DNA from: Nitrososphaerota archaeon
GTDB lineage: Archaea; Thermoproteota; Nitrososphaeria_A; Caldarchaeales; Calditenuaceae
Assembly (NCBI GenBank): GCA_038845265.1
Contig: JAWBQR010000001.1
Location: 1-64,000 of the forward strand
Direction: 5' to 3'
Length of the DNA stretch: 64,000 bases
A program made the position numbers and the translations under genes. Shown in pieces: positions 5,349 to 28,139 of the stretch. The stretch's first letter is position 1. Each line of letters starts with the position of its first letter. Below the pieces are notes generated by a model. It was not told where the DNA came from and did no database searches. It saw only the letters and a program-made list of their open reading frames with translations.

Positions 5349-5636
5349 TTGAGTGAGCATCATGTAGATTCTCTTGTAACAGCCACTATTTTGATGATTG
5401 CTGGATTTATTTTATTGTTCATTGGACTTATAGTGGCATTTCTTGGAAGCTTACCTATTCAAAAAATAGAAGGTGGCGGAATAATTTTGATTGGCCCACT
5501 TCCGATAATAATCACCGGTGAGGGACAAGAATTCATCTCGACAATCGTTACGTTATTACTCTTGGCCATATTCGTCGCAGTTATCATATTCATAATAGTG
5601 AGATTGATGCATAGACAGACAGAACCAGTAGAATAA
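5349..5636 (+). CDS. DUF131 (TIGR00304-like) membrane protein, second copy
   Basis: GGGIILIGPLPII motif between TM segments. Confidence 0.8.
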   Translation: MSEHHVDSLVTATILMIAGFILLFIGLIVAFLGSLPIQKIEGGGIILIGPLPIIITGEGQEFISTIVTLLLLAIFVAVIIFIIVRLMHRQTEPVE

Positions 5637-5670
5637 TTATCCTAAAATAGCTCAAAATGGATAATTATTA

Positions 5671-5889
5671 ATGGTCACAGCGGATTTGCGGTACTGCCCC
5701 GAGTGTGGTGGTGTGATGGTTTATGACCGTAATTCCAAACTCTATACTTGTAGTTCCTGCGGCATTTCAATGAATATGCAACAAATAATCGAGTATCAAG
5801 AAAAACTGAGATCTGAGAAAGAAAGAGTTGAAAGAGAAAAAAGAAAAAAGGAGGAATATTTAGAATGGTGGCTCTCAAGTAAGAAGTAA
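5671..5889 (+). CDS. Small zinc-ribbon protein
   Basis: CPECGG...CSSCG plus a charged helix ending EYLEWWLS. Confidence 0.75.
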   Translation: MVTADLRYCPECGGVMVYDRNSKLYTCSSCGISMNMQQIIEYQEKLRSEKERVEREKRKKEEYLEWWLSSKK

Positions 5890-5916
5890 ATTTTTTCGAG
5901 TCGAGGAGAATTAATG

Positions 5917-6063
5917 TTTAAATATAAGCCATAGACATTACTGCATCCGTGGTGTAGAATTGGGGGATTTAGTTTGGCTACTCTTCTGAAGTAATCCAAA
6001 CTTGTTTATTCGATAAAGAGATTGATGCTTTCACTGCCCCCAGATGCTTCTCAGGTGGTGCCT
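5917..6063 (+). promoter_or_regulatory. trp operon promoter and structured 5' leader
   Basis: TATA TTTAAATA 5917-5924; pairings AGTTTGG/CCAAACT, TGGGGG/CCCCCA and CACTGCC/GGTGGTG (trpD SD). Confidence 0.55.
5960..5989 (+). CDS. Putative trp leader peptide MGDLVWLLF
   Basis: TTG start 5 nt after SD-like GTGGTG; Trp codon at 5975-5977; TGA at 5987-5989. Confidence 0.4.
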   Translation: MGDLVWLLF

Positions 6064-7128
6064 ATGATTAAGGAGATTATTCAAAGCTTAGTCGATAATA
6101 TAGACTTAACCGAGGAAGCTGCAGCCGATGCACTAAGAGCGATTCTGAAAAACGATGCGACTAATGCTCAGATAGGTGCATTTTTGACTGCTCTCAGAAT
6201 GAAAGGCGAGACCGTAGAAGAGATGGTAGGGATGGCCCGTGTAATGAAAGAAATGTGCATTAAGGTAGAACTACCCTCTAAGGAGCACTTGATAGATATT
6301 GTCGGCACTGGTGGTGATAGAGTTAAGACATTCAACATAAGTACAATAGCAGCTTTAATCGTTGCAGGAGCAGGAGGACGAGTGGCGAAGCACGGTAACA
6401 GAGCAATCACAGGACGATGCGGAAGTGCAGATTTACTTGAGGCACTCGGTGTCAATATACGTGCTGACCCAGAGACTGTAAAGCAATGCATAAACACCTC
6501 ATATATAGGATTCATGTTTGCTCCTGATTATCACCCTGCAATGAAGAGAGTCATGGAGCCGAGAAGGGAGATAGGCATTCGGACTATATTTAATGTACTC
6601 GGACCGATAACTAATCCTGCAGGAGTTTCTTCTCAACTAATAGGCGTGCCTGATGAGAGCTTGATAATTAAAGTAGCTAGAGTTTTGCCAAGGCTAGGAG
6701 TTAAGCACGCGATGGTCGTGCATGGGCAAGAAGGTACAGACGAAATCTCAGCTGCGGGAAAAACAAAGGTTGCATGGATTAGGGATGGGGGGATTTCATT
6801 ACTCGAACTACATCCCTCAAGATTTGGGATAGATCCAGTTAAGCCAGAGTTAATAATCTCTGATAGCGTTGAGAAGAGTCTAGAAATCGCGGTTAAAGTG
6901 TTATGCAACTGCTATGAAGACAAAGACCCTAGGAAATTATTTTCGCTTGTAAATGCTGCTGCAGGACTTATAGTGGCCGGACTTTCCGATAAGTTTGACG
7001 ATGCATTTGAGCTTGCTAAGGAATCACTAGAAAGTGGAACGGCACTAGAGCGATTAAAACAACTTGTTAAGACGAGTAGAGGTGATCGTGATAGATTTGA
7101 AGAAGTCATCGAGAGATATTCTAAGTGA
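6064..7128 (+). CDS. trpD: Anthranilate phosphoribosyltransferase
   Basis: DIVGTGGD, FNIST, KHGNRA and GSAD motifs; start placed at ATG 6064 after SD GGTGGTG (ORF track starts at 6022). Confidence 0.96.
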   Translation: MIKEIIQSLVDNIDLTEEAAADALRAILKNDATNAQIGAFLTALRMKGETVEEMVGMARVMKEMCIKVELPSKEHLIDIVGTGGDRVKTFNISTIAALIVAGAGGRVAKHGNRAITGRCGSADLLEALGVNIRADPETVKQCINTSYIGFMFAPDYHPAMKRVMEPRREIGIRTIFNVLGPITNPAGVSSQLIGVPDESLIIKVARVLPRLGVKHAMVVHGQEGTDEISAAGKTKVAWIRDGGISLLELHPSRFGIDPVKPELIISDSVEKSLEIAVKVLCNCYEDKDPRKLFSLVNAAAGLIVAGLSDKFDDAFELAKESLESGTALERLKQLVKTSRGDRDRFEEVIERYSK

Positions 7129-7888
7129 ACTAAGCATAGAGGCTAAACGACTAGTCAGGGCTGGATACTATAACGTAGATTTTGACAGAAAAAGGGCTGT
7201 ACGGAGCTTACGTTCAAGCATACTTAGTCGGGACAATAAAGCAATAATAGCTGAGATAAAGCGTGCTTCACCAAGCTCAGGATGGTTAAGAAAAGATTTA
7301 GACATAAAGTCAATTATCGCGTCAATCGAGCGAGGAGGAGCGGCCGGAATATCCATTCTCACAATGCCTAGATATTTTCATGGCGACTTAAAATTTTTGT
7401 CCGAGGCAAGTACTATAACTAAACTACCACTATTAATGAAGGACTTCATAGTATCAAGTAACCAGATAGAGGCGGGATGGAGATCAGGAGCAGATGCAAT
7501 CTTGCTCATACTAAAAATTTTTAAGAAGAGATATTCCGAACTCAGCATCGAAGAAGCAATCCGAAAAATACACTCACTTGGCATGGAAGTCTTATTAGAA
7601 GTCCATACTCGTGAGGAACTGTTAGAAGCATCAGCTCTTGACGTAGACCTCATTGGTGTTAATTCAAGGAATCTAGAAACGATGTATGTAGAGACAGATA
7701 ATTTTATTCATTCAATTGCCAATATAGATGTTAACAATAGGGTCTTAGTGGCAGAGAGTGGGATTAACAGTCCAGAGCAAATCTCAATGCTAAAAAAATT
7801 AGGATATAAAGCGTTCCTGATAGGTACGGCCATAATGAAGTCCAACGATGTTGAGCAAGCAGTAAAAAGTTTTGTAGGTGATCCATAA
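7064..7888 (+). CDS. trpC: Indole-3-glycerol phosphate synthase (probable start GTG 7088)
   Basis: IIAEIKRASPS, LMKDF, LEVH, GVNSRNL and VAESGI. Confidence 0.95.
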   Translation: MLRRVEVIVIDLKKSSRDILSELSIEAKRLVRAGYYNVDFDRKRAVRSLRSSILSRDNKAIIAEIKRASPSSGWLRKDLDIKSIIASIERGGAAGISILTMPRYFHGDLKFLSEASTITKLPLLMKDFIVSSNQIEAGWRSGADAILLILKIFKKRYSELSIEEAIRKIHSLGMEVLLEVHTREELLEASALDVDLIGVNSRNLETMYVETDNFIHSIANIDVNNRVLVAESGINSPEQISMLKKLGYKAFLIGTAIMKSNDVEQAVKSFVGDP

Positions 7889-8526
7889 TGAGAGTGAAAG
7901 TTAAGATTTGTGGGATAACAAGGCTGAGCGATTTAGAAGCATCGATAGATGCTGGAGCCGATGCTGTAGGATTTATAGTTGGATTTCCAAACTCTCCGAG
8001 AAATATCTCCATAAAACTAGCAAAAAGATTAATTGATCACGTTCCTCCATTTGTCACATCAGTACTTGTAACTAGATTCATAAATATAGAAAATCTAAAG
8101 ATGTTATACAACGAGTTGAGGCCAGATGCATTACAGCTTTATTATTGTGACTCTCCTTTGAGAGTCAAGAAAGATCTCCCCGAGCCTTTTCTCATAATCC
8201 CGTCAAATCCTGAGGAGGCCAAGTTAATGAATAATTTTGACGGTATCGATGCGCTACTTTTAGACTCCTGTAGCCATGAACTGCCTGGGGGTACAGGTAA
8301 GACCCATAATTGGGATTTAAGTAGAATGATTAGAGACAGGATAGGATTACCAATCATACTTTCTGGCGGACTTACGCCTGATAACGTTTCTGAAGCCATA
8401 ATGAAGGTGAGACCGTATGCAGTCGATGTATCGAGCGGCGTTGAGTTATCGCCTGGCATCAAGGATCATGAAAAGATCCGCATATTTGTCGAGAGGGCAA
8501 AGGCGGTGATGGATAGTGGATTATGA
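7888..8526 (+). CDS. trpF: Phosphoribosylanthranilate isomerase
   Basis: VKICGIT, GGTG, LSGGL and DVSSGVE. Confidence 0.96.
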
Positions 8527-9718
8527 AGAATTTAGTCTACCGGATCCAAATGGAAAATTCGGAGTATTCGGAGGCAAGTATGTTCCTGAGACACTTATGG
8601 CAGCACTAGAGGAGCTTGAAAACACTTATCTAAAATTGAAGAATGACTCAACGTTTTGGAGGGAACTTGAATTCTATCTTAGAGACTACGCCGGTAGGCC
8701 AACGCCACTTTACTATGCAGAACGTCTAACTAAAACAATTGGGGGCGCAAAGATTTACCTGAAGCGCGAAGATCTGGCATTCACTGGTGCTCATAAGATC
8801 AACAATGCCTTAGGACAGGCGCTTATTGCTAAGAAAATGGGAAAATCAAGACTCATAGCAGAGACTGGTGCCGGACAGCATGGCGTTGCTGTAGCGACGG
8901 TAGCAGCAAAGTTCGGCTTCAAATGCGTAATCTATATGGGAAGAGAAGACGTCGAGCGTCAGAGGATGAATGTCTACAGAATGAAACTTCTCGGAGCTGA
9001 GGTTGTACCTGTTGATAGCGGCTCAAGAACCCTCAAAGATGCAATAAATGAAGCGATGCGGGATTGGGTTACAAATCTTCACGATACACATTATCTAATC
9101 GGATCGGCCGTCGGGCCACATCCATATCCGATGATTGTTAGGGATCTTCAGTCAGTAATTGGCCGGGAAATTAAGGAGCAATTTCTCATGAAAGAGAAGA
9201 GATTGCCCGATGTATTGGTTGCATGTGTTGGTGGAGGGAGTAATGCTATTGGAACCTTCTATCCATTCCTCAACGATAAGGATGTAAGATTAATAGGCGT
9301 AGAGGCAGGTGGACTTGGGCTTGAATCAGGGGAGCACGCCGCGAGCCTAACTGCTGGAAGTTTAGGAATATTCCATGGGATGCATACATATCTCCTACAG
9401 ACTACTGATGGGCTGATAAAGAGTACCCATTCAATATCTGCTGGCCTCGATTATCCGGCAGTAGGTCCTGAACATGCTTACCTTAAGGAAATCGGACGCG
9501 TAAAATACGTAGCTGTCAATGATAGTGAAGCTCTTGATGCCTTTAAAAAACTCACAAGAATAGAGGGCATTATTCCAGCGCTCGAACCTGCGCACGCATT
9601 AGCATATGCTATTGACTTAGCGGAATCTATGAGGAGGGATGAAGCAATAGTAGTTACACTCTCTGGAAGGGGCGACAAGGACCTCGACATAGTAATGAGA
9701 CAGGAGGGATATCTATGA
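8516..9718 (+). CDS. trpB: Tryptophan synthase beta chain (TrpB1)
   Basis: [31 protein letters not shown] and SAGLDYP. Confidence 0.98.
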
Positions 9719-10554
9719 ATGAAATAGAACATGCTTTCCAGAAATGTAAATCTGAGAAAAGAATGGCAATAATCCCGTTCATAACTGCTGGTGACCCAAA
9801 TCCTTCTTGGACGCTGAAAATCGTGGAGAAACTCAATAATATAGGAGCTGATATAATTGAGCTGGGTGTTCCCTTCTCTGACCCAATAGCTGACGGAGTA
9901 ACTATTCAGTCCTCCTCTGAAAGAGCGCTAAAAGCTGGGGTTACGCTAAAAGAAGTTTTAAAAATAGCCGGATATTGTAAAAAAGAATATAATCTACCAA
10001 TAGTGCTGCTTTCATACTTTAATCCACTTTACAAAATGGGTCTTAATAATTTTTTCGAGAATGCATCGAAAGTAGGGATTAACGGAGTAATCGTACCAGA
10101 CCTTCCTGTGGAGGAAGCTGGTGAATATATCCAGCTGGCCAGATTACATGACATCTCAACGATCTTCCTAGCATCGCCTACAACTAGCGATGAGAGGTTA
10201 GAAAAGATAATTAAATACTCTACTGGCTTCACGTATCTAATATCAGTTAAAGGAGTAACCGGACCTAGAGAGAGAATCAGCGAAGATGCTTTTATGCTAA
10301 TTCAGCGTGTCCGAAAAATTCCTCGAAGACCGCCGATAGCTGTCGGTTTTGGGATATCGAGTCCTCTCCAAGTGAAACTACTTGCGGAGGCTGGAAGTGA
10401 TGGAGTAATTATAGGGAGTGCCTTGATAAAAATAATAGAGCAAAACCTATCAGACCTAAATTATGGCTTGAAAAAGGTTGAAGAATTCTTAGAGAACGTG
10501 AAAGAGGCGGGAAAGATCGATAACTTTACATTGAGGGAAAAATGTGAGGAATAA
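9715..10554 (+). CDS. trpA: Tryptophan synthase alpha chain
   Basis: [18 protein letters not shown] and VGFGIS. Confidence 0.97.
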
Positions 10555-10558
10555 GTAA

Positions 10559-11002
10559 ATGGAGGAGGAAGATAACTCGCTCTTGGACCTTAGGCCTGTC
10601 TTGATCCATATAGATTGCCTAAAAGAACATGAAGAATGCGATCCAGATTACTTGGAAGAACTACTAGAAAAAATTGTAAAAGACGGAGAACTCAAGCGCC
10701 CTATAATCGTTGATTCAAGAACAATGATAATTTTAGATGGTCATCATAGGTTTCTATGTATTAAAAAATTGGGGAAGAGATACATACCTGCTTACTTAAT
10801 AGATTATAGTAGGCCAGAAATAGAAGTTTGTTCATGGAACAATACTGAAACGATAACAAAAGAGATGGTGATAGAGGCCGCACTTACCGGCAAAAAGTTT
10901 CCTCCAAAGTCTACTAAACACATGGTTAAGATCGGAGGCGAACTATACCATATCACGTATATAGAGAAAGAACACCCATATCCTCTACATGCTATACCAT
11001 AA
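10559..11002 (+). CDS. ParB/Srx-fold protein, SerK/SbnI-like
   Basis: EHEE, DGHHR, conserved W, TK and PPKSTKH motifs. Confidence 0.75.
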   Translation: MEEEDNSLLDLRPVLIHIDCLKEHEECDPDYLEELLEKIVKDGELKRPIIVDSRTMIILDGHHRFLCIKKLGKRYIPAYLIDYSRPEIEVCSWNNTETITKEMVIEAALTGKKFPPKSTKHMVKIGGELYHITYIEKEHPYPLHAIP

Positions 11003-19781: not shown

Positions 19782-19793
19782 TAAAAAGTAACC

Positions 19794-19995
19794 TTTAAAT
19801 TAGACCTTTCCTACGCAAAATGCAAGAGCAGGGGGAATAGGCGTGGGGAGCAAAAACTTCAAATTAATAGGATTTGCGACCTACGCCTATTTCTATGCCT
19901 GGATTAGTTAGGTTTCTCCCTCCCTGCCCCCTGCTCTTGAGGTGGTTGGTAATGTCTATAGTTAATGTGTGGTGTTTTAGACGGAGGTGTGATTC
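19794..19995 (+). promoter_or_regulatory. aro operon promoter and highly structured 5' leader (putative attenuator)
   Basis: TATA TTTAAAT 19794-19800; perfect 13-bp stem 19823-19835/19927-19939; 12-bp inner stem 19836-19847/19880-19891; pyrimidine tract 19913-19938. Confidence 0.75.
19843..19911 (+). CDS. Putative aromatic amino acid leader peptide MGSKNFKLIGFATYAYFYAWIS
   Basis: GTG start 7 nt after GGGGG; 3 Phe, 3 Tyr and 1 Trp in 22 codons; TAG at 19909-19911. Confidence 0.65.
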   Translation: MGSKNFKLIGFATYAYFYAWIS

Positions 19996-21051
19996 ATGAA
20001 AAGAGTAAAGGCCGCGGTTCTAGGCGCTACTGGAATGGTTGGACAACTGTATGTCGAGTTATTGGCTAAGAATCCATGGTTCGAAATATCAGCCGTTACA
20101 GGCAAGTCAAACGTTGGGAAAACACTCGCTGAAGCCTACAGAGGAAGAGGAAACACACCTGAAATATACAAAGACCTTGAAGTGTTACCCTCAGATCCTG
20201 GCAGGATAGACGCAGATATAGTCTTTAGCTGCCTGCCAACAAGTGCTGCGCGAGAAGTCGAGCCGAGATTCGCCGAGGCTGGATTTCCTGTCATAAGCGA
20301 TGCGTCTGCTCATAGGACGTGGCCCGATGTGCCTCTCATTGTGCCGGAGATTAATCCAGAACATCTAGATCTGATTGATGTGCAGAGGAAAAATAGGAAG
20401 TGGGACGGATTCATTGTGACGACGCCCAACTGCACGACAGTTGGATTTGTAATGCCTTTGAAAGCATTGATGGACCAGTTTGGTTTAAAGTATGCTAGCT
20501 TAGTTTCTATGCAGGCAATATCAGGTGCTGGATATAACGGAGTGCCATCCATGGCAATCCTCGGAAACATAATTCCCTACATAGAAGGCGAAGAACCTAA
20601 AGTCATAGAGGAGCCCAGAAAGATCCTTGGAAAATTAAATGATGGTAAGATAATCCCAGCTGAAATAGCAATTGATGCTACCTGTACTCGATCACCCACA
20701 ATTTTTGGGCATTTAGAAGTTATACAGGTCGAACTCAATGAAGATGCGGAAATTGATGAAGTTAAAGAGACATTAAGCACATACTCTGGATTACCACAGA
20801 TGTTAGAGCTTCCCTCTGCCCCAAGAAGACCTATTTATGTATTCGAAGAACCAGATAGGCCTCAACCTAGACTTGATGTTGATTTCGGAGACGTGAAGGG
20901 AATGACAATTACTATTGGTAGACTTAGGAAATCAAGCAGGCCTCGGCATTACTCGTTTGTATCATTGAGCCATAATTTGATTAGAGGAGCAGCGGGGACA
21001 GCTATACTTACAGCAGAACTTTTAATTGCGACTAGGAGGTTGAACTATTGA
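19996..21051 (+). CDS. asd: Aspartate-semialdehyde dehydrogenase
   Basis: LGATGMVG, PNCTT, QAISGAG and HNLIRGAAG; SD GGAGGTG. Confidence 0.96.
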   Translation: MKRVKAAVLGATGMVGQLYVELLAKNPWFEISAVTGKSNVGKTLAEAYRGRGNTPEIYKDLEVLPSDPGRIDADIVFSCLPTSAAREVEPRFAEAGFPVISDASAHRTWPDVPLIVPEINPEHLDLIDVQRKNRKWDGFIVTTPNCTTVGFVMPLKALMDQFGLKYASLVSMQAISGAGYNGVPSMAILGNIIPYIEGEEPKVIEEPRKILGKLNDGKIIPAEIAIDATCTRSPTIFGHLEVIQVELNEDAEIDEVKETLSTYSGLPQMLELPSAPRRPIYVFEEPDRPQPRLDVDFGDVKGMTITIGRLRKSSRPRHYSFVSLSHNLIRGAAGTAILTAELLIATRRLNY

Positions 21052-21845
21052 TGGTCTCAGGTAAGCAGGTTCATATAAATCGACTTACTGAGAGGGGAAG
21101 AATGCTATGTATTCCGATGGATCATGGCATTACTGCCGGACCAATGAAGGGTTTAGACACAATCTACCAGACGATTGAAAAAATTGAAGAAGGAGGGGCG
21201 ACAGCTTTCCTTGTACAGAAAGGAATAATTAAACATATGAAGAGAGTACCAAGAATTGGCTTTATTGTCCATGTCTCCGCTAGTACTTCGATATGCCCAG
21301 ATCCGAACTGGAAAGTAAGAGTAGGAACAGCATTGGCGGCGATAAGGCTAGGTGCTGACGGATTATCAGTCCACATAAATATTGGAAGTAAAATGGAGCC
21401 ACTCATGCTCAAAAAGCTTGGCCTACTCGTTGATGAATGTGATTCACTCGGCCTACCAATCATTGCAATGATGTATCCAAGAGGAGAAGGAGTAAAGGAC
21501 CCAAATGATCCGAAAATATTGGCACATGTCGCTAGGGTTGGCGCCGAGCTAGGAGCAGACATTGTTAAGGTACCATTTAGTGGAGATGCAGAAAGTTTTA
21601 GTAAAATAGTTGAGGCATGTCCCGCACCCATAGTTATGGCCGGAGGCCCGAAGGTAGATAGTGACGAGGCTGTACTAGCTATGGCTAAAGCTGCAATAGA
21701 TGCGGGCGCAATGGGAGTTACTATTGGTAGAAACGTGTTTATGCATGAAAAACCTGAACTCATCGTCAGGGCTTTAAGAGGAGTAGTGATAGAGGGTATG
21801 AATGTCAAGGAGGCGCTATCCATTATTGAGACAAAATCAGAATAA
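21048..21845 (+). CDS. aroA': 2-amino-3,7-dideoxy-D-threo-hept-6-ulosonate synthase (MJ0400-type class I aldolase)
   Basis: PMDHG, MMYPRG, ELGADIVK, AGGPK and GRNVF; operon context. Confidence 0.9.
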   Translation: MMVSGKQVHINRLTERGRMLCIPMDHGITAGPMKGLDTIYQTIEKIEEGGATAFLVQKGIIKHMKRVPRIGFIVHVSASTSICPDPNWKVRVGTALAAIRLGADGLSVHINIGSKMEPLMLKKLGLLVDECDSLGLPIIAMMYPRGEGVKDPNDPKILAHVARVGAELGADIVKVPFSGDAESFSKIVEACPAPIVMAGGPKVDSDEAVLAMAKAAIDAGAMGVTIGRNVFMHEKPELIVRALRGVVIEGMNVKEALSIIETKSE

Positions 21846-22830
21846 ACCAAAAGAAATTATCGTTGAAGTTAAGACAACCAAGGAAGCGGTAGAAGCGGTA
21901 GCGAAGGGCGCTAGTGCACTTTTTGCTCCATACAACATTATTCCTCCTGAATTAAGAGATAAAGTGAAGATTTACAACGAGGAGACGGGCACCTCGATAA
22001 TTTCGATAAAAACTCCCTCGGACGTCGAGTTGATTCATAGAGCAGCTATGGCAGGGGCATCTGCAATTTTAGTAGAGACATCAGACATAAGAATCATACC
22101 GTTGGAAAATGTTTTGGCAAAGCTTCAAGGAATGAATACTGAGGTTCTGGTCAGAGTTGATAAAATTGAGGATATTGAGACCCTCTTCGGAGTATTAGAA
22201 AAAGGAGTAGACGGCATCGTCTATAGCCCATCAAGTATTGAAGAAGTTTCGCTTTTAAGAGATTTTCTAAATTATGTGAAAAAGGTCGAACTTGTTCCTG
22301 CAAGAGTCAAAGAGGTAATAAATGCAGGTATTGGTGAGAGAGCCTGCATTGATACGACAACGATGTTAAGGATTGGGGAGGGACTTCTTGTAGGAAGCAT
22401 GTCCCGAATGCTATTCCTAGTTCACAGCGAAGTTATTGGTTCAAGTTTCACTGAACCTCGTCCATTCAGAATAAACGCCGGAGCTATACATCTATACACT
22501 TTAGGACCATTGGCAAATACTTATTACTTATCCGAGTTAAAAGCTGGAAAAAGAGTGCTAATAGTATCTAAAGACGGCTCCACTAGAGTGGCAACAATTG
22601 GGAGGGTAAAGATTGAGAGGCGACCATTGATGATGATCTCAGCCGAGATTGATAATACTAATGGCTCCGTGATTGTTCAAAATGCTGAGACGATTAGATT
22701 AGTCGACCGCAATGGTGAACCTATTGAAGTGACAAGGATAGGTGCTGGTGATGAAGTACTAGTACATCTCTCAGGAATATCAGGCAGACACATGGGGATG
22801 AAAGTAGAGGAAAGCATAAATGAAGTTTAA
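21802..22830 (+). CDS. aroB': 3-dehydroquinate synthase II (MJ1249-type)
   Basis: IIPLEN, RACIDT, RPFRINAG, KIERRP, QNAETIRL and RHMG. Confidence 0.93.
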   Translation: MSRRRYPLLRQNQNKPKEIIVEVKTTKEAVEAVAKGASALFAPYNIIPPELRDKVKIYNEETGTSIISIKTPSDVELIHRAAMAGASAILVETSDIRIIPLENVLAKLQGMNTEVLVRVDKIEDIETLFGVLEKGVDGIVYSPSSIEEVSLLRDFLNYVKKVELVPARVKEVINAGIGERACIDTTTMLRIGEGLLVGSMSRMLFLVHSEVIGSSFTEPRPFRINAGAIHLYTLGPLANTYYLSELKAGKRVLIVSKDGSTRVATIGRVKIERRPLMMISAEIDNTNGSVIVQNAETIRLVDRNGEPIEVTRIGAGDEVLVHLSGISGRHMGMKVEESINEV

Positions 22831-23539
22831 GCCAGAAGAAAAAATATGCGTTTCAATAGCAGGAAAAAATTTCTACGAAGTAACTAACCAGTTAGAAGTA
22901 TTAAATGAGGCTGGAGCCAAATTAGTAGAGATGAGATTAGATTTTCTTATTGATAATAAATATCTGGAAGTTTTGAAAGCCGCTTCAAATTACGGTTTTA
23001 AAATAGTATCAACGGTTAGATGCAGGACAGATGGCGGAGTATTTGATAAGAGCGAAGAACAACGTAAAAAAATTCTTTTGGAGAGCGCTTCAATAGCCAC
23101 TTATGTCGATGTCGAATACGATACGTATCTCTCCGATGAGCAGTTCATAGAAAAGCTGAAGGATCGAGGCTCGAAGATCTTACTTTCAAAACATTTTTTT
23201 GAATATAATCCAAATCATCAGACGCTGATTATGATTTTGGAGAGAATGAAAGACTATGGAGATTTATACAAAATAATTACCTCTCCTAAAAATCTGTTTG
23301 ATGCAAATAATCTGTTATCTCTATACAAATATGACTGGACTAAGGGACGGTTAATCGCCTTTTGTATGGGGGAACAATGGGCCTTCACGCGTCTTCTCAG
23401 TATTTTCTTGGGAGCACCTTTTACATATGCACATAATGGCAATTCTCCCGTGGCGTCAGGACAACTTTCATTCATAGAGGTGAAAAATGAATTAGAAAAA
23501 CTATCATGGTTGGGTGAAAAATGGCATTTCTCGCAGTAA
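22820..23539 (+). CDS. aroD: Type I 3-dehydroquinate dehydratase
   Basis: EMRLD, YVDVE, SKHFF, FCMG and ASGQ. Confidence 0.9.
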   Translation: MKFKPEEKICVSIAGKNFYEVTNQLEVLNEAGAKLVEMRLDFLIDNKYLEVLKAASNYGFKIVSTVRCRTDGGVFDKSEEQRKKILLESASIATYVDVEYDTYLSDEQFIEKLKDRGSKILLSKHFFEYNPNHQTLIMILERMKDYGDLYKIITSPKNLFDANNLLSLYKYDWTKGRLIAFCMGEQWAFTRLLSIFLGAPFTYAHNGNSPVASGQLSFIEVKNELEKLSWLGEKWHFSQ

Positions 23540-24369
23540 TTGGTCACCCCGTTGGTCATTCATTATCTCCTTTAATGCATAACTCTACATTATGGATGTA
23601 TAGATTACCTCATAGGTATCTTGCAATAGATATATTACCAGAGAATCTTAGAAATGTAATAAATTCATTATGGAAATTAGAATTTATAGGCTTCAATATA
23701 ACTATACCTCATAAGGAGCAAGTAGCGAAAATCGCTATAGAACTCTCAGAGGAGGCCGCCTCAACAGGCGCGGTAAATACCACAATCAGAAAAAGCGATG
23801 GCTGGGCGGGCTTTAACACGGATGTTGAAGGTTTCATTTCTAGTTTTTCCAGATTAAATGTAAGAATGATCGATACTTGTTTAATACTAGGTGCTGGTGG
23901 TTCTGCAAAAGCTGCAACCTACGCATTGGACAAAATGGGTGCAAGAAAAATTATAATTGCTAACAGAACGCCTGAAAGAGCAATAAAACTACGTGAATTA
24001 ATGGATCCAAAAATTAGCAGCAATCTAGAAATAATATCACTAGATGATGTTAATAATCATGTATCTAGAGTAGATGTTGTAATTAACGCAACACCAGTTG
24101 GGTTGATGGACGATAAATTATTAATTAATCCTGAATGCTTAACAATTGATCAAATAGTCTATGATCTTGTCTATTCGCCTAGACCCACTCCACTAATACG
24201 AGCGGCTATGAATAGAGGCTGTAAAATCATTGACGGAGTAGTGCATCTCGTAGAGCAGGGTGCAGCTTCGTTTAGGATATGGACAGGCATTACTCCTGAA
24301 ACTTCATTTATGGAGAAAGTAGTGAGAACCGAACTGCTGAGAAGGTGGAGGAGAAGTGAGATTAGTTAG
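23521..24369 (+). CDS. aroE: Shikimate dehydrogenase
   Basis: GHSLSP, NITIPHK, NTD, GAGGSA and NATPVG. Confidence 0.96.
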   Translation: MAFLAVIGHPVGHSLSPLMHNSTLWMYRLPHRYLAIDILPENLRNVINSLWKLEFIGFNITIPHKEQVAKIAIELSEEAASTGAVNTTIRKSDGWAGFNTDVEGFISSFSRLNVRMIDTCLILGAGGSAKAATYALDKMGARKIIIANRTPERAIKLRELMDPKISSNLEIISLDDVNNHVSRVDVVINATPVGLMDDKLLINPECLTIDQIVYDLVYSPRPTPLIRAAMNRGCKIIDGVVHLVEQGAASFRIWTGITPETSFMEKVVRTELLRRWRRSEIS

Positions 24370-25633
24370 GATTACAGGTAAAATAGCAGAGGGAGTCATT
24401 AAGGCACCGCCCAGTAAAAGCTATACACATCGTAGCGTGATCATCGCGTCCCTAGCAGATGGAACCTCATATATTCATAATCCCCTGATCTCTATGGATA
24501 CAGTTGCCTCAATAACTGGAGTAACACTCATGGGAGCAAAGATCACACAAGAAACTAATAAACTGATTATAGAAGGAGTCAGTAATCCCCTGACGCCTCC
24601 CGATGTTATAGATGCTAAAAATTCGGGTACCACTTTGAGAATACTAACTGCAGTTGCTGGTCTAGTAAAAAGTGGATATGTAGTGCTTACTGGTGACGAT
24701 AGCTTGAGGAAAAGACCCATGCAACCGCTCCTAGAAGCTCTTCATCAACTTGGAGTGGAGGCTTGGTCAACTAGGCTCAATGGAAAGGCCCCAATAATAG
24801 TAAAGGGTGGGGGATACAAATATCGAGAATGCATCATTACAGGAGAGATAAGCAGTCAATTCATATCTGGATTGATGATCGCGGGGGCCAAGACAGAGCT
24901 TGGCATCTTAGTAAAAATATCTGGGAAAATAGTTTCCTTGCCCTATATACACGCTACCATGAAGACTCAAGAATTGTTCGGTGCAAAATCTATTGTGCAA
25001 GATAGCCAAATAATTACTGAGTCAACCGGCTACAAATCTACTGAATTCAAGGTGCCTGGAGATTACGGACTCTCAGCATTCTTATTAGCTGTACCGTTTA
25101 TGATTGGGGGAGAAATAACTTTAAGGGGACTTAATGATGAATTGCCACAACCGGAGGCTGTAATTATCAATATCCTTAGGAACATGGGTGGAGAAATAAA
25201 ACAAGGCCGAGACGAAGTATTAGTGAGAGACACTCCCTTAGAAGGAATAAAGGTATCACTCAGAGACTCGCCCGATTTGTTACCTGTTATATCGGCATTA
25301 GCAGTAAAAGCGAAAAATGAAACTGTCATTACTGATGTGGGTCATGCTAGGTTTAAAGAAAGTGATAGGATATCGGTGATAGCAACAGAATTTAGAAAAG
25401 CAGGCATTAAGACTGAAGAGCTACCTGAGGGGTTAAGAATATTGCCGGGTGAACTTAAACCCGCAGTGCTTGACCCACATGGTGACCATAGACTGTTCAT
25501 GGCTTTTTCACTATTGTCAATATATTCTGGTGGGAAAGTATTAGTAAAAGATCCAGAATGTGTAGCAGTCTCATATCCACAGTTCTTAAATGATCTTAAA
25601 ACCATAGGTTGTAGGGTGGAAATAATAGAATGA
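24356..25633 (+). CDS. aroA: EPSP synthase
   Basis: PSKSYTHR, NSGTTLR, SSQFISG, KESDRI and DHR. Confidence 0.96.
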   Translation: MRLVRITGKIAEGVIKAPPSKSYTHRSVIIASLADGTSYIHNPLISMDTVASITGVTLMGAKITQETNKLIIEGVSNPLTPPDVIDAKNSGTTLRILTAVAGLVKSGYVVLTGDDSLRKRPMQPLLEALHQLGVEAWSTRLNGKAPIIVKGGGYKYRECIITGEISSQFISGLMIAGAKTELGILVKISGKIVSLPYIHATMKTQELFGAKSIVQDSQIITESTGYKSTEFKVPGDYGLSAFLLAVPFMIGGEITLRGLNDELPQPEAVIINILRNMGGEIKQGRDEVLVRDTPLEGIKVSLRDSPDLLPVISALAVKAKNETVITDVGHARFKESDRISVIATEFRKAGIKTEELPEGLRILPGELKPAVLDPHGDHRLFMAFSLLSIYSGGKVLVKDPECVAVSYPQFLNDLKTIGCRVEIIE

Positions 25634-26733
25634 CTGGTAACATAATTGGAAAAAGATTTATAGTGATAAGTTTCGGTGAGAGTCATGGCAAATGCATAGG
25701 CGTAGTGATTGATGGATGTCCAGCCGGTCTGCCAATATCGGAAGATGAAATTCAATCTTTCGTAGATCTGAGAAGACCAGGCCAGTCATTAGTAACAACA
25801 CAAAGAAAAGAAGAGGACAAAGTAGAGATACTCAGCGGCATATTTGACGGACACACTACCGGTGCGCCAATAGCAATGGTGGTTTGGAACAAGGATGTAG
25901 ATTCACGTGCATATGATATCTTCAGACAAATTCCTAGGCCTAGTCATGCGGATTATTTTGCTTTTTTTAAATATGGGGGATACAATGATTGGAGAGGCGG
26001 TGGAAGATTCTCAGGCAGAATAACTGTAGGATTCGTTATGGCTGGCGCCGTGGCACTAAAATTGATCAAATACGTTCTAGGAATAGATGTACTAGCATAT
26101 ACTAAGAGTATAGGAGATATAAATTCACGCGAACTAACTGTTGAAGAGATAAGAAAGTACAGATACTTAAATGAGGTAAGATGCCCAGACTTAGGGGCGG
26201 CTAAGAAAATGAAGGATCTATTAATCAAACTTAAAAGTGAGGGAGATAGCATAGGTGGGATAATTGAATGCATCGCTTTAAATGTACCAATAGGGCTTGG
26301 AGAACCAGTCTTTGATTCTCTCGACTCAGAGATTGCTAAGGCAATATTTTCTATCCCGGCTGTAAAGGGAATAGAGTTCGGAAAAGGATTTTCTGCTAGT
26401 AGAATGACTGGGTCTCAACATAATGATCCGCTTACCTATATTAATGGAAGAGTGATTCCAAAAACGAACAATGCAGGGGGAATCGTTGGAGGTTTATCAA
26501 CTGGAAGCGAGATAATATTTCGCGTAGCATTTAAGCCACCTGCATCTATATCAAAGCCTCAGAAAACCCTGAATATTCAGACTTTGAGAGATGAAGATCT
26601 TATAATTACCGGTAGACATGACCCATCGGTAGTTCCGCGAGCTGTGCCTATTGTTGAGTCAATGACGGCGATAGTACTTGCTGACCACGCAATCAGAGCA
26701 GGACTGATAGCTCCAGTAATTAAAGAGAGATGA
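25630..26733 (+). CDS. aroC: Chorismate synthase
   Basis: FGESHG, PRPSHAD, GGGRFSGR and GRHDP. Confidence 0.97.
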   Translation: MTGNIIGKRFIVISFGESHGKCIGVVIDGCPAGLPISEDEIQSFVDLRRPGQSLVTTQRKEEDKVEILSGIFDGHTTGAPIAMVVWNKDVDSRAYDIFRQIPRPSHADYFAFFKYGGYNDWRGGGRFSGRITVGFVMAGAVALKLIKYVLGIDVLAYTKSIGDINSRELTVEEIRKYRYLNEVRCPDLGAAKKMKDLLIKLKSEGDSIGGIIECIALNVPIGLGEPVFDSLDSEIAKAIFSIPAVKGIEFGKGFSASRMTGSQHNDPLTYINGRVIPKTNNAGGIVGGLSTGSEIIFRVAFKPPASISKPQKTLNIQTLRDEDLIITGRHDPSVVPRAVPIVESMTAIVLADHAIRAGLIAPVIKER

Positions 26734-28139
26734 GTAAGATGTCTTCAGAAGATATAAGAAAGTTGAGAGAAGAAATAAAAGAAGTTACATCTAAAATTCT
26801 GGAGCTAATTGCATATAGGCTCAAAAAGGCAGAGGAGATTGGTAAACTAAAAAATGAAATAGGAATTTCATATATAGATCATGAGGTTGAAAAAGAATTA
26901 AGAGAACTTATCAATAAAAAGTCTCTTCAACTAGGCCTCGATACAAATTTTACCCAGCAATTAATGACGCTGATCTTCAAAGAATCTATAAAGCAACAAA
27001 TGAGCCTAACTAAGTTTACTAATAAAACGCAAATAACTCATATGGATATTTTTAGAAAAGCAAAAGAATTAGAGGCAGAAGGAAAGAAAATTATTCACCT
27101 AGAAGTAGGCGAGCCATATTTTGGAGCACCAAGAGAAGTTTCTGAAAAACTATCAGAAGCAGCAAAGAAGGGATATGCATTTTATGGAGAACCTTTAGGA
27201 AGAACAGAACTAAGATTTGCAATTGCAGAATGTTTAGAAAAAAGATTCAGCATCTCACTAAAAAAGGATGAAATACTAATAACACCAGGTGGACGATTTG
27301 CAGTCTTTCTTGCAGCTGCCACAACTCTATCTCCCGGAGATGAAGCTATAATAATTGACCCATCATGGCCTATGTATAAACAGGTAACGGAATTTTTACA
27401 GAGCAGACCTGTTATTGTTGAGACTCGCCTCGAGGATGGATGGATTCCTAATATTGAAGAGCTTGAAAGAGCTGCTAGCCATGCAACAAAATTATTATTC
27501 ATTAACTATCCAAATAATCCTACCGGCGTAACCATTGATAGGAAAAGACTTGAAGAGATATTAGATTTCGCTAGAAGGAGGAATCTCTACGTCGTCAGCG
27601 ATGAAGTATATATGGATTATTCATTCGTTGACTTCACGTCAATTCTTGAAATAGGATACGAAAATGCAATAATGCTAATGTCATTTTCAAAAAATTATGG
27701 CATGACCGGCTACAGAATCGGCTATATGGTTGCAAAAAGAGAAATAATAGAGAGAGCAGCAAAGATACAAGCTCTACTCATGACCTGCGTGCCTGAATTT
27801 ATTCAGATGGCTGCCCTTGAAGCACTAAAAGACAGAGAGACTCCTAAAAAATATTGTGAAGAAATTAAAAAAAGAATTGAAGTAGTATGTCAAAAATTAG
27901 ATAGCATGAATGCTGAATACGTCAAGCCAACAGGTGGAATGTATGTTTTTCCTCGATTTAAATTCATGAAGAGAGATTCCTCCGAACTTGCCTTAAAGCT
28001 ATTAGAAAAATATGGAGTATCGATAGCTCCTGGATCAGTATTCGGTAACTATCCGAACTATTTTAGAATATCTGTAGGAATTAGGCTAGACCAAATAGTC
28101 GAGGGAATTGAAAGGCTTAATAAAGCCATAAATGAATAG
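26730..28139 (+). CDS. Chorismate mutase (AroQ) fused to class I/II PLP aminotransferase
   Basis: N-terminal about 90 aa AroQ-like (LREEI...R...IGKLK...D..E...ES); then HLEVGEP, NNPTG, SDEVY and SFSKNYGMTGYRIG. Confidence 0.85.
   Translation: MSKMSSEDIRKLREEIKEVTSKILELIAYRLKKAEEIGKLKNEIGISYIDHEVEKELRELINKKSLQLGLDTNFTQQLMTLIFKESIKQQMSLTKFTNKTQITHMDIFRKAKELEAEGKKIIHLEVGEPYFGAPREVSEKLSEAAKKGYAFYGEPLGRTELRFAIAECLEKRFSISLKKDEILITPGGRFAVFLAAATTLSPGDEAIIIDPSWPMYKQVTEFLQSRPVIVETRLEDGWIPNIEELERAASHATKLLFINYPNNPTGVTIDRKRLEEILDFARRRNLYVVSDEVYMDYSFVDFTSILEIGYENAIMLMSFSKNYGMTGYRIGYMVAKREIIERAAKIQALLMTCVPEFIQMAALEALKDRETPKKYCEEIKKRIEVVCQKLDSMNAEYVKPTGGMYVFPRFKFMKRDSSELALKLLEKYGVSIAPGSVFGNYPNYFRISVGIRLDQIVEGIERLNKAINE

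Follow-up and report, generated by a model that had tools for sequence, protein, structure and literature searches.

In the trpL leader of Escherichia coli an open reading frame (ORF) with tryptophan codons stands upstream of the trp genes and lets the ribosome sense the supply of charged tryptophan tRNA (Trp-tRNA), and the TnaC leader peptide, which carries the pattern W-x3-D-x7-P within about 24 residues, stalls the ribosome at its stop codon. In the gene of the release factor RF2 (prfB) the internal Shine-Dalgarno (SD) sequence has a spacing of 3 nucleotides (nt). Three systems in which a change of reading frame is put to use are treated in the relevant passages of a 2016 review (PMC5009743): prfB, with the shift site CUU_U and the internal SD; yeast Ty1, with the site CUU_AGG_C that contains a slowly decoded codon; and the ermC leader, where ketolides induce a frameshift, ribosomes run into the spacer, unfold the mRNA and thereby allow initiation downstream. 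In the same passages no hungry-codon frameshifting is known that yields a functional trans-frame protein specific to starvation. For cellular genes of archaea one programmed frameshift, a -1 case, is reported in the corresponding section of a 2021 review (PMC8211752), which leaves tryptophan unmentioned. Archaeal trp control responding to tryptophan is described in the pertinent parts of a 2019 paper (PMC6737238) for TrpY of Methanothermobacter and for Tar (TK0271) of Thermococcus; almost all Crenarchaeota are without homologues of these two proteins, and a third mechanism is considered possible there. The subject of the present analysis is the leader of the trpDCFBA operon in a stretch of 64,000 nt from a Nitrososphaerota archaeon (GenBank assembly GCA_038845265.1, contig JAWBQR010000001.1, positions 1 to 64,000 of the forward strand), which is called the window in the following, together with a second copy of the same leader element upstream of trpE in the same genome. 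In a full-text literature search, the coverage of which leaves out subscription journals, no archaeal trp leader of such kind was found described in the text portions retrieved.

The leader contains a mini-ORF with a single Trp codon, which is conserved upstream of trp genes together with its frame relation to the following gene; in many genomes this gene is devoid of a start codon in its own frame, and the codon preceding TGG is constrained to NTT at the level of the nucleotides. The favoured reading of these observations, which is judged rather probable, is that the leader acts as a tryptophan sensor, with a programmed +1 frameshift at a Trp-starved G/CUU-UGG-C site, by which the shifted ribosomes would either make TrpE or reach the start of trpD. 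The features of the locus are as follows.

5917-5926, plus strand: TATA-like box TTTAAATATA of the trpDCFBA unit, read from the sequence
5948-5951, plus strand: transcription start region, predicted from the TATA spacing
5951-5954, plus strand: SD-like GGTG, 5 nt ahead of the mini-ORF start and within GTGGTG 5949-5954
5960-5989, plus strand: zero-frame mini-ORF MGDLVWLLF, from TTG 5960 to TGA 5987-5989, with its sole Trp codon at 5975-5977
5963-5968, plus strand: internal SD-like GGGGAT, putative frameshift stimulator, 3 nt 5' of the P-site codon
5971-6002, plus strand: local hairpin with pairs 5971-5977/5996-6002 and 5979-5982/5990-5993, its 5' arm holding the shift site
5972-5978, plus strand: putative +1 shift site GTT TGG C, P-site GUU to UUU (5973-5975), next codon GGC
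5973-6071, plus strand: +1 "bridge" frame of 32 sense codons without ATG, GTG or TTG, its TAA 6069-6071 overlapping the trpD start (ATGATTAA)
6003-6011, plus strand: U-rich TTGTTTATT 3' of the local hairpin
6054-6060, plus strand: trpD SD GGTGGTG
6064-7128, plus strand: trpD, by Pfam match
7064-7888, plus strand: trpC, by Pfam match
7888-8526, plus strand: trpF, by Pfam match
8516-9718, plus strand: trpB, by Pfam match
9715-10554, plus strand: trpA, by Pfam match

The course of events proposed for this leader, in which the slip and its link to the supply of Trp-tRNA, as well as the sense of the regulation and the coupling to trpD, are all deduced from sequence, would be the following. A short-leader mRNA would begin near 5950, and ribosomes would initiate at TTG 5960 and make M-G-D-L-V, until GUU (5972-5974) in the P site and UGG (5975-5977) in the A site are reached as the decision point. 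With ample Trp-tRNA, W-L-L-F would be read and the ribosome would stop at UGA 5987-5989, 75 nt before trpD, so that nothing would carry translation to this gene. With scarce Trp-tRNA the A site would remain empty and the peptidyl-tRNA-Val would slip +1 onto UUU (5973-5975), probably aided by the SD-like GGGGAU 3 nt upstream. GGC would then be read and the ribosome would cross the 32-codon start-less +1 frame to UAA 6069-6071 atop the trpD AUG 6064, where its arrival would open the SD region and allow a coupled initiation or reinitiation of trpDCFBA. The copy of the sensor upstream of trpE would not need such a bridge, as its +1 frame already encodes TrpE.

Compared with the described systems, the element resembles prfB, as the latter is presented in the passages cited, in that a short zero-frame ORF comes first, in the NUU_U site that would permit +1 re-pairing on UUU, in the functional protein encoded in the +1 frame, in an internal SD-like stretch just upstream, a putative stimulator the geometry of which matches that given in PMC5009743, and in the C which often follows the A-site codon. 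It differs from prfB in that the A-site codon is the sense codon UGG, read by a tRNA, where prfB has a stop codon recognised by a protein factor, in that the organism is an archaeon and the shift would fall at codon 5-7, on an mRNA that is leaderless or has a short leader, and in that in the window the P-site codon is GUU and the +1 frame is a bridge to a separate gene rather than the gene itself. With Ty1 and ABP140 of yeast, again as far as the passages of PMC5009743 describe them, it would share a peptidyl-tRNA that slips by +1 at a CUU-type codon, the scarce aminoacyl-tRNA at the next position and GGC as the +1 codon. The slow codon of Ty1 is constitutively rare, which gives a fixed ratio, whereas here the charge of the tRNA would follow the end product of the operon and the site would thus work as a regulator. 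For the bridge to trpD the closest precedent, on the same source, is ermC, but there induction is by a ribosome-bound drug, whereas in the present leader a lack of Trp-tRNA would take this part and the bridge terminates on the trpD start codon. With trpL the element has in common a leader ORF with a Trp codon upstream of trp genes, on which the ribosome would sense Trp-tRNA; unlike in trpL there are no tandem Trp codons and no conserved terminator and antiterminator, and leader and structural gene overlap in different frames. The W...D...P pattern of TnaC is absent, the leader peptides having 6-10 residues up to the W and being variable thereafter. TrpY and Tar finally, according to the parts of PMC6737238 cited, are proteins that bind DNA at TRP boxes or at TGGACA-N8-TGTCCA, neither of which motifs is found in the trp promoters of the window genome.

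The mini-ORF, the hairpin and GTGGTG had been pointed out by an earlier, sequence-only reading of the stretch, along with two further pairings, of CACTGCC (6032-6038) with GGTGGTG (6054-6060) and of CCCCCA (6037-6042) with TGGGGG (5961-5966), and all of these are indeed present at these positions. The same reading had set the trpD start at 6064 and a promoter about 110 nt 5' of it, and it had named the conservation of the Trp codon upstream of trpD and trpE as a check; the Trp codon and the mini-ORF are conserved across the class and far beyond. In 24 of 41 relatives the alignment of the TrpD homologue begins at query residue 1-5, which fixes the start at ATG 6064 and rules out the alternatives 6022 and 6025. 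A separate search for loci related to TrpD gave mostly bacteria, and Bathyarchaeia with trpD after trpG, and served only to place the lineage. The placement of the promoter is borne out by the spacing between the TATA box and the element, as the distance from the start of the TATA box to the G of CGTG (5949) is 32 nt in the window and equal in the eight relatives of genus g4, in which the mini-ORF begins at a GTG in the position matching 5949 of the window. In addition one metatranscriptome contig (run X1) starts matching at 5951, with a depth of 8.1 downstream versus 2 upstream, and lends weak support to transcription from about 5950, the metatranscriptome coverage of the region consisting of contigs, which cannot prove an RNA 5' end. 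This contig differs from the window at 6012 and 6042, and the +1 frame stays open with both differences. The raw-read runs X5-X7, of each of which about 3-5% was sampled, gave 0 reads and therefore amount to no test.

As to the signals expected at a shift site, GTT TGG (5972-5977) in the window is of the form NUU followed by U, which is able to re-pair in +1, and TAG 5970-5972 shuts the +1 frame directly 5' of it. The 3' end of the 16S rRNA of the window genome is GGATCACCTCCT, and GGGGAT (5963-5968) pairs with the anti-SD at five of its six positions. The A-site codon is always UGG, the sole codon for Trp, in genes that make Trp. A conserved +1 ORF without initiation signals of its own is found both for trpE and for the trpD bridge, some genomes having nearby in-frame starts. 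Among the 32 tRNAs which ARAGORN detected in the window genome (1.37 Mb in 34 contigs, 43% G+C, 93% complete) there was no tRNA-Trp gene.

In this genome trpE and trpG are located on a different contig from trpDCFBA, and the second copy of the element is found directly 5' of trpE, with CGTGGTG, an ATG start and the identical five codons G-D-L-V-W. The 16-mer of the mini-ORF occurs exactly twice in the 1.37-Mb genome, 5' of trpD and 5' of trpE, where by our own arithmetic about 6e-4 extra copies would be expected by chance, and the first six codons of the mini-ORF are kept in the trpE copy and in two further genomes (G001 and the same-genus sister species G002). A genome-wide scan for a start codon, three to six codons and NTT-TGG with a long +1 frame yielded 82 matches in the window genome; those other than the two trp leaders look like chance, the best of them (C10:9656) being an AlaRS-like gene with its own GTG start. 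A 14-mer scan of metagenomes gave at least 115 matches, and none of the 80 loci examined adjoined trpD or trpE.

The class to which the window genome belongs consists of a single order with 76 species genomes, 37 of which have trpE. Two of these are cut by contig ends, which leaves 35 analysable genomes, made up of 24 loci and 12 loci with one common to both sets; for the 11 newly added loci the frame was judged by its openness to the end of the locus and by whether its translation resembled TrpE, rather than by tblastn. Mini-ORFs reading M-x-G-G-x-[LV]-W, MGDLVW or M..GMCLW, about 22-27 nt after a TATA box, were found in 35/35, and in every one of them the frame of trpE is shifted by +1 from that of the TGG in the mini-ORF and is open from the TTT which overlaps the preceding codon. 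In one genome (G034) the trpE frame reaches a TAA after 255 codons. In the genera g1, g3 and g4 a TAG shuts the trpE frame immediately 5' of this TTT. A GTG inside GGTGG had been considered as a conventional start of trpE and is impossible in these three genera, because the TAG closes that frame. In 12 genomes of the class neither ATG nor GTG nor TTG occurs in the trpE frame from the preceding stop to beyond 30 codons, nine of the 24 loci (G005, G007, G011, G013, G017, G018, G029, G031 and G035) and three of the 12 (G049, G062 and G075) being affected, and the start-less stretch is protein-coding in the +1 frame, with differences within g4 distributed over the three codon positions as 332/274/445. 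The mini-ORF codons for Gly, Leu, Arg and Cys show synonymous changes, whereas GTT and CTT are the only codons that precede TGG in the class. Members of family f1 share the stretch TTAGTTTGG without any nucleotide difference.

Only in the genera g1 and g4 does trpD head its own transcription unit, and the element is present in 10/10 such leaders, the window included. In these the zero frame stops 2-4 codons past TGG and frames 0 and +2 carry stops at varying places, whereas the start-less +1 frame is free of stops for 27-33 codons in all ten. Its end lies 5 nt (g1) or 7-10 nt (g4) past the first base of the trpD start, and the distance from TGG to trpD within g4 is always a multiple of three. 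The DNA of the bridge is only about 55% identical between genomes.

To extend the comparison beyond the class, 401 genomes of the phylum were drawn, 230 of which contained trpE, and the 5' regions of 40 of these, from 19 other families, were taken. NTTTGG was placed with trpE at +1 in 34/40 and in each of the other two frames in 1/40, and the exact arrangement ATG-N9-NTT-TGG was found in 31/40. The peptide form M-x-G-G-x-[LV]-W or M-[RG]-x-x-[VLIF]-W holds for 35/35 genomes within and 34/40 outside the class. The P-site codons of the 31 exact-form leaders outside the class were GTT (13), CTT (13), ATT (4) and TTT (1) and never a synonym of these; NTT is found in all 35 trpE leaders of the class, in the 10 trpD leaders and in 31/31 exact-form leaders outside. 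As the amino acid before TGG varies between V, L, I and F and the bases TT never do, the constraint is on the re-pairing to UUU and not on the amino acid, as would be needed for a slip to this codon. In leaders beginning with ATGAGG a TGA which overlaps the ATG shuts the trpE frame. The initiation signals aim at the ATG of the mini-ORF, with a TATA box either 29-30 nt upstream, which corresponds to the leaderless type, or 44-54 nt upstream and combined with a GGAG-like SD; an SD 4-mer ahead of this ATG was seen in 25/34 leaders outside the class. An SD-like 4-mer within codons 1-3 occurs in 28/34 of them versus 248/1700 random segments (15%), and since the same bases encode the conserved Gly-Gly/Asp, constraints on RNA and on peptide are not separable here. 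The stop of the zero frame is found 1-46 codons after the W. Taken over the phylum, which looks like Thermoproteota and would include ammonia-oxidiser-like and Bathyarchaeia-like families, the wider proposition that archaea without TrpY and Tar control Trp synthesis across much of it by frameshifting at a starved UGG is given about an even chance.

Some families show arrangements of their own. In family f10 (L147, L151 and L158) a leaderless ATG opens a zero frame without a Trp codon, and a TGA overlaps this ATG in the trpE frame, which has a GTG start 7 nt in; these trpE genes have the appearance of relatives from which the sensor was lost or in which it never existed, as with RF2 genes that lack the frameshift. 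In the AT-rich, Sulfolobaceae-like family f20, nine genomes of three genera (L215, L217, L219-L223, L225 and L226) have trpB first in the trp operon. The leader 5' of trpB consists there of a TATA box and, about 22-24 nt on, GTG YTT TTG TTG NNN CAA TGG TAA, encoding the peptide M-[LF]-L-L-x-Q-W followed by the stop, and its TGG overlaps the ATG of trpB, which is thus in the -1 frame. Genus g47 of family f13 (L183-L188) has a leaderless mini-ORF ATG-(x)-x-GGG-TGG, followed by TAA in five of six genomes, which within GGGGTGG shares bases with a GTG of the trpE frame, placed at -1. Ribosomes starved at the UGG would get into trpE there by slipping -1 on G-GGG; alternatively the GTG is an ordinary start codon. 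Hexamers resembling TGTACA (TG[TC][AG]CA) were detected within 110 nt 5' of trpE in 16/40 genomes outside the class (among L143-L182) versus 4/40 in-gene controls, often as an imperfect inverted pair adjoining the TATA box, and may be a TRP-box-like operator working beside the leader. No such hexamer was found in 5851-6070 or around the trpE copy of the window genome.

The sequence-only reading had explained the leader by attenuation through Trp-tRNA, with competing helices that mask or free the SD of trpD. The part of this proposal that stood is the translated mini-ORF with a single Trp codon as the likely sensor; its output through competing helices did not. Classical ribosome-mediated attenuation, in which a stall at UGG would select between such helices or a terminator formed by the hairpin 5971-6002 and the U tract 6003-6011, is considered unlikely. 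The conservation of the mini-ORF and its Trp codon agrees with it, as does the position of this codon in the 5' arm of a hairpin (-9.2 kcal/mol) which is marginally beyond chance, with z -2.81 and 3/200 shuffles as stable, and which is followed by TTGTTTATT. RNAalifold gave a single weak consensus hairpin (-4.6) over the same motif in eight g4 trpD leaders, and the minimum-energy fold pairs 6032-6038 with the SD of trpD. The helices on which the regulation would depend proved, however, to be no better than shuffled sequence: z was -0.89 (35/200) for the anti-SD helix of 6032-6038 with 6054-6060, -1.52 (15/200) for the long-range GGGGG/CCCCC helix and +1.22 for the whole leader, where 178/200 shuffles fold at least equally well. 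No equivalent fold exists in the sister species G002 (z -0.08), the leader of which is only about 55% identical, and with the RNAalifold result this leaves no conserved, mutually exclusive terminator and antiterminator helices among the relatives. As drawn, moreover, the helices would turn trpD off on a ribosome stall, which is the wrong direction. Every leader seen has one Trp codon only and no run of regulatory codons, and where the element precedes trpE, the overlap of mini-ORF and gene leaves no space for alternative helices. Attenuation also leaves unexplained the +1 relation in 35/35 and 34/40 genomes, the missing trpE starts and the restriction to NTT, and the competing-helix model the constantly open +1 frame up to the gene. 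A further long-range helix at the 5' end, for example of GATAGCTGG with CCAGCTATC, had been suspected by eye and was not picked up by RNAalifold on the eight g4 leaders. The sole match at the gathering score of Rfam in the window was a tRNA, and in 5600-6300 nothing scored better than E 0.24.

A little less likely again is an upstream ORF that acts without a frameshift, its [LV]-W peptide stalling the ribosome by a shortage of Trp-tRNA or by a TnaC-like sensing of free Trp and so altering mRNA stability, polarity or termination-reinitiation, with TrpE made from a non-canonical or internal codon. The peptide G-G/D-x-[LV]-W is conserved while its Gly, Leu, Arg and Cys codons change synonymously, the window genome has in-frame ATGs near its trpE site, and the mini-ORFs of other families in which Trp and then a stop overlap gene starts fit stalling or reinitiation at least equally well. 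On this explanation, however, it is difficult to see why the trpE frame of many genomes runs through more than 30 conserved codons without a canonical start, and the zero-frame stop, variable between 1 and 46 codons after W, is unlike a reinitiation device; the rule of NTT only speaks of a constraint on nucleotides and not on the peptide, and the hallmarks of TnaC are absent. Very improbable is finally that the element serves in the DNA as the operator of a transcription factor, such as the winged-helix-turn-helix/DUF4443 protein encoded after trpG, with the ORFs being incidental. Archaeal repressors often bind at or just after the transcription start, and the element is located at or just past the predicted one; TTAGTTTGG is nucleotide-invariant within family f1, a similar string, GGATTAGTTAGG, is found in the aro leader of the window, and a candidate regulator gene follows trpG. 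The element is not palindromic, however, and outside the family its nucleotides vary, yet the start codon, the frame, NTT-TGG and the +1 relation are kept. Neither of the two trp promoters of the window genome contains a TRP-box-like TG[TC][AG]CA hexamer, and an operator would leave the missing trpE start codons unexplained.

A number of observations weigh against the frameshift sensor. The re-pairing of GUU to UUU is possible at only two of three positions and is weaker than that of the CUU of prfB, and GGGGAU carries an internal mismatch to the anti-SD. The trpE of the window genome has in-frame ATGs 6 and 13 codons past the shift site, which would permit conventional initiation in this genome, and family f5 has, 4 nt past the ATG, a GTG that is in frame with trpE and may be a conventional start. 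The motif is absent in 6/40 genomes outside the class. In Thermoproteaceae-like and Sulfolobaceae-like families the Trp mini-ORFs follow another plan, with an overlap at -1, so that a +1 slip is not the sole arrangement and a common logic without frameshift would be possible. The argument for trpD, in turn, is built on an open frame with a single-sequence chance of 0.2-0.5 (the +1 frame was open in a single shuffled trpD leader with a probability of 0.22-0.54) and on relatives that are not independent, for which reason these chance probabilities must not simply be multiplied.

Several neighbouring features of the trp loci may be mentioned. Just 5' of the trp promoter, at 5671-5889, a zinc-ribbon protein of 72 residues and of the TFS/TFIIB type is encoded. 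Directly after trpA an ORF of 147 residues (10559-11002) gave a partial match below the cut-off to a SerK (ADP-dependent L-serine kinase)/SbnI ParB-like domain (E 1.6e-19), and a link of this protein through serine or phosphoserine to tryptophan synthase is conceivable. The winged-helix-turn-helix/DUF4443 protein after trpE-trpG has 225 residues (L001 188-865, minus strand; contig C8 of G000) and is a possible regulator; NCBIfam offered no name for it. The window also contains an aro operon (19996-28139), which extends from an asd-like gene through a chorismate mutase-aminotransferase, with a leader at 19782-19995. This leader has a TATA box at 19793, a perfect complement of 13 bp between 19824-19836 and 19928-19940, and a mini-ORF from GTG 19843 to TAG 19911 (MGSKNFKLIGFATYAYFYAWIS) in which Phe, Tyr and Trp are abundant. 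A second ORF runs from ATG 19896 to TGA 19999, its end overlapping the ATG of asd (ATGA), and CAG GGG G is part of a short ORF at 19820. The string GGATTAGTTAGG of the aro leader resembles the stretch TTAGTTTGG conserved in the trp element.

If the frameshift sensor is true, an enzyme, or the bridge to trpD, would be read only by those ribosomes that slip +1 for want of Trp-tRNA. As a mode of amino-acid sensing this would be hitherto undescribed, and it would form a new class beside attenuators, T-boxes, riboswitches and repressors. It would be the first natural hungry-codon frameshifting with a functional product and the first +1 programmed frameshift in a cellular gene of archaea. Many archaeal trpE genes would then have mis-annotated starts or be wrongly called truncated, and the finding would bear on how Crenarchaeota and their relatives regulate the genes for aromatic amino acids.

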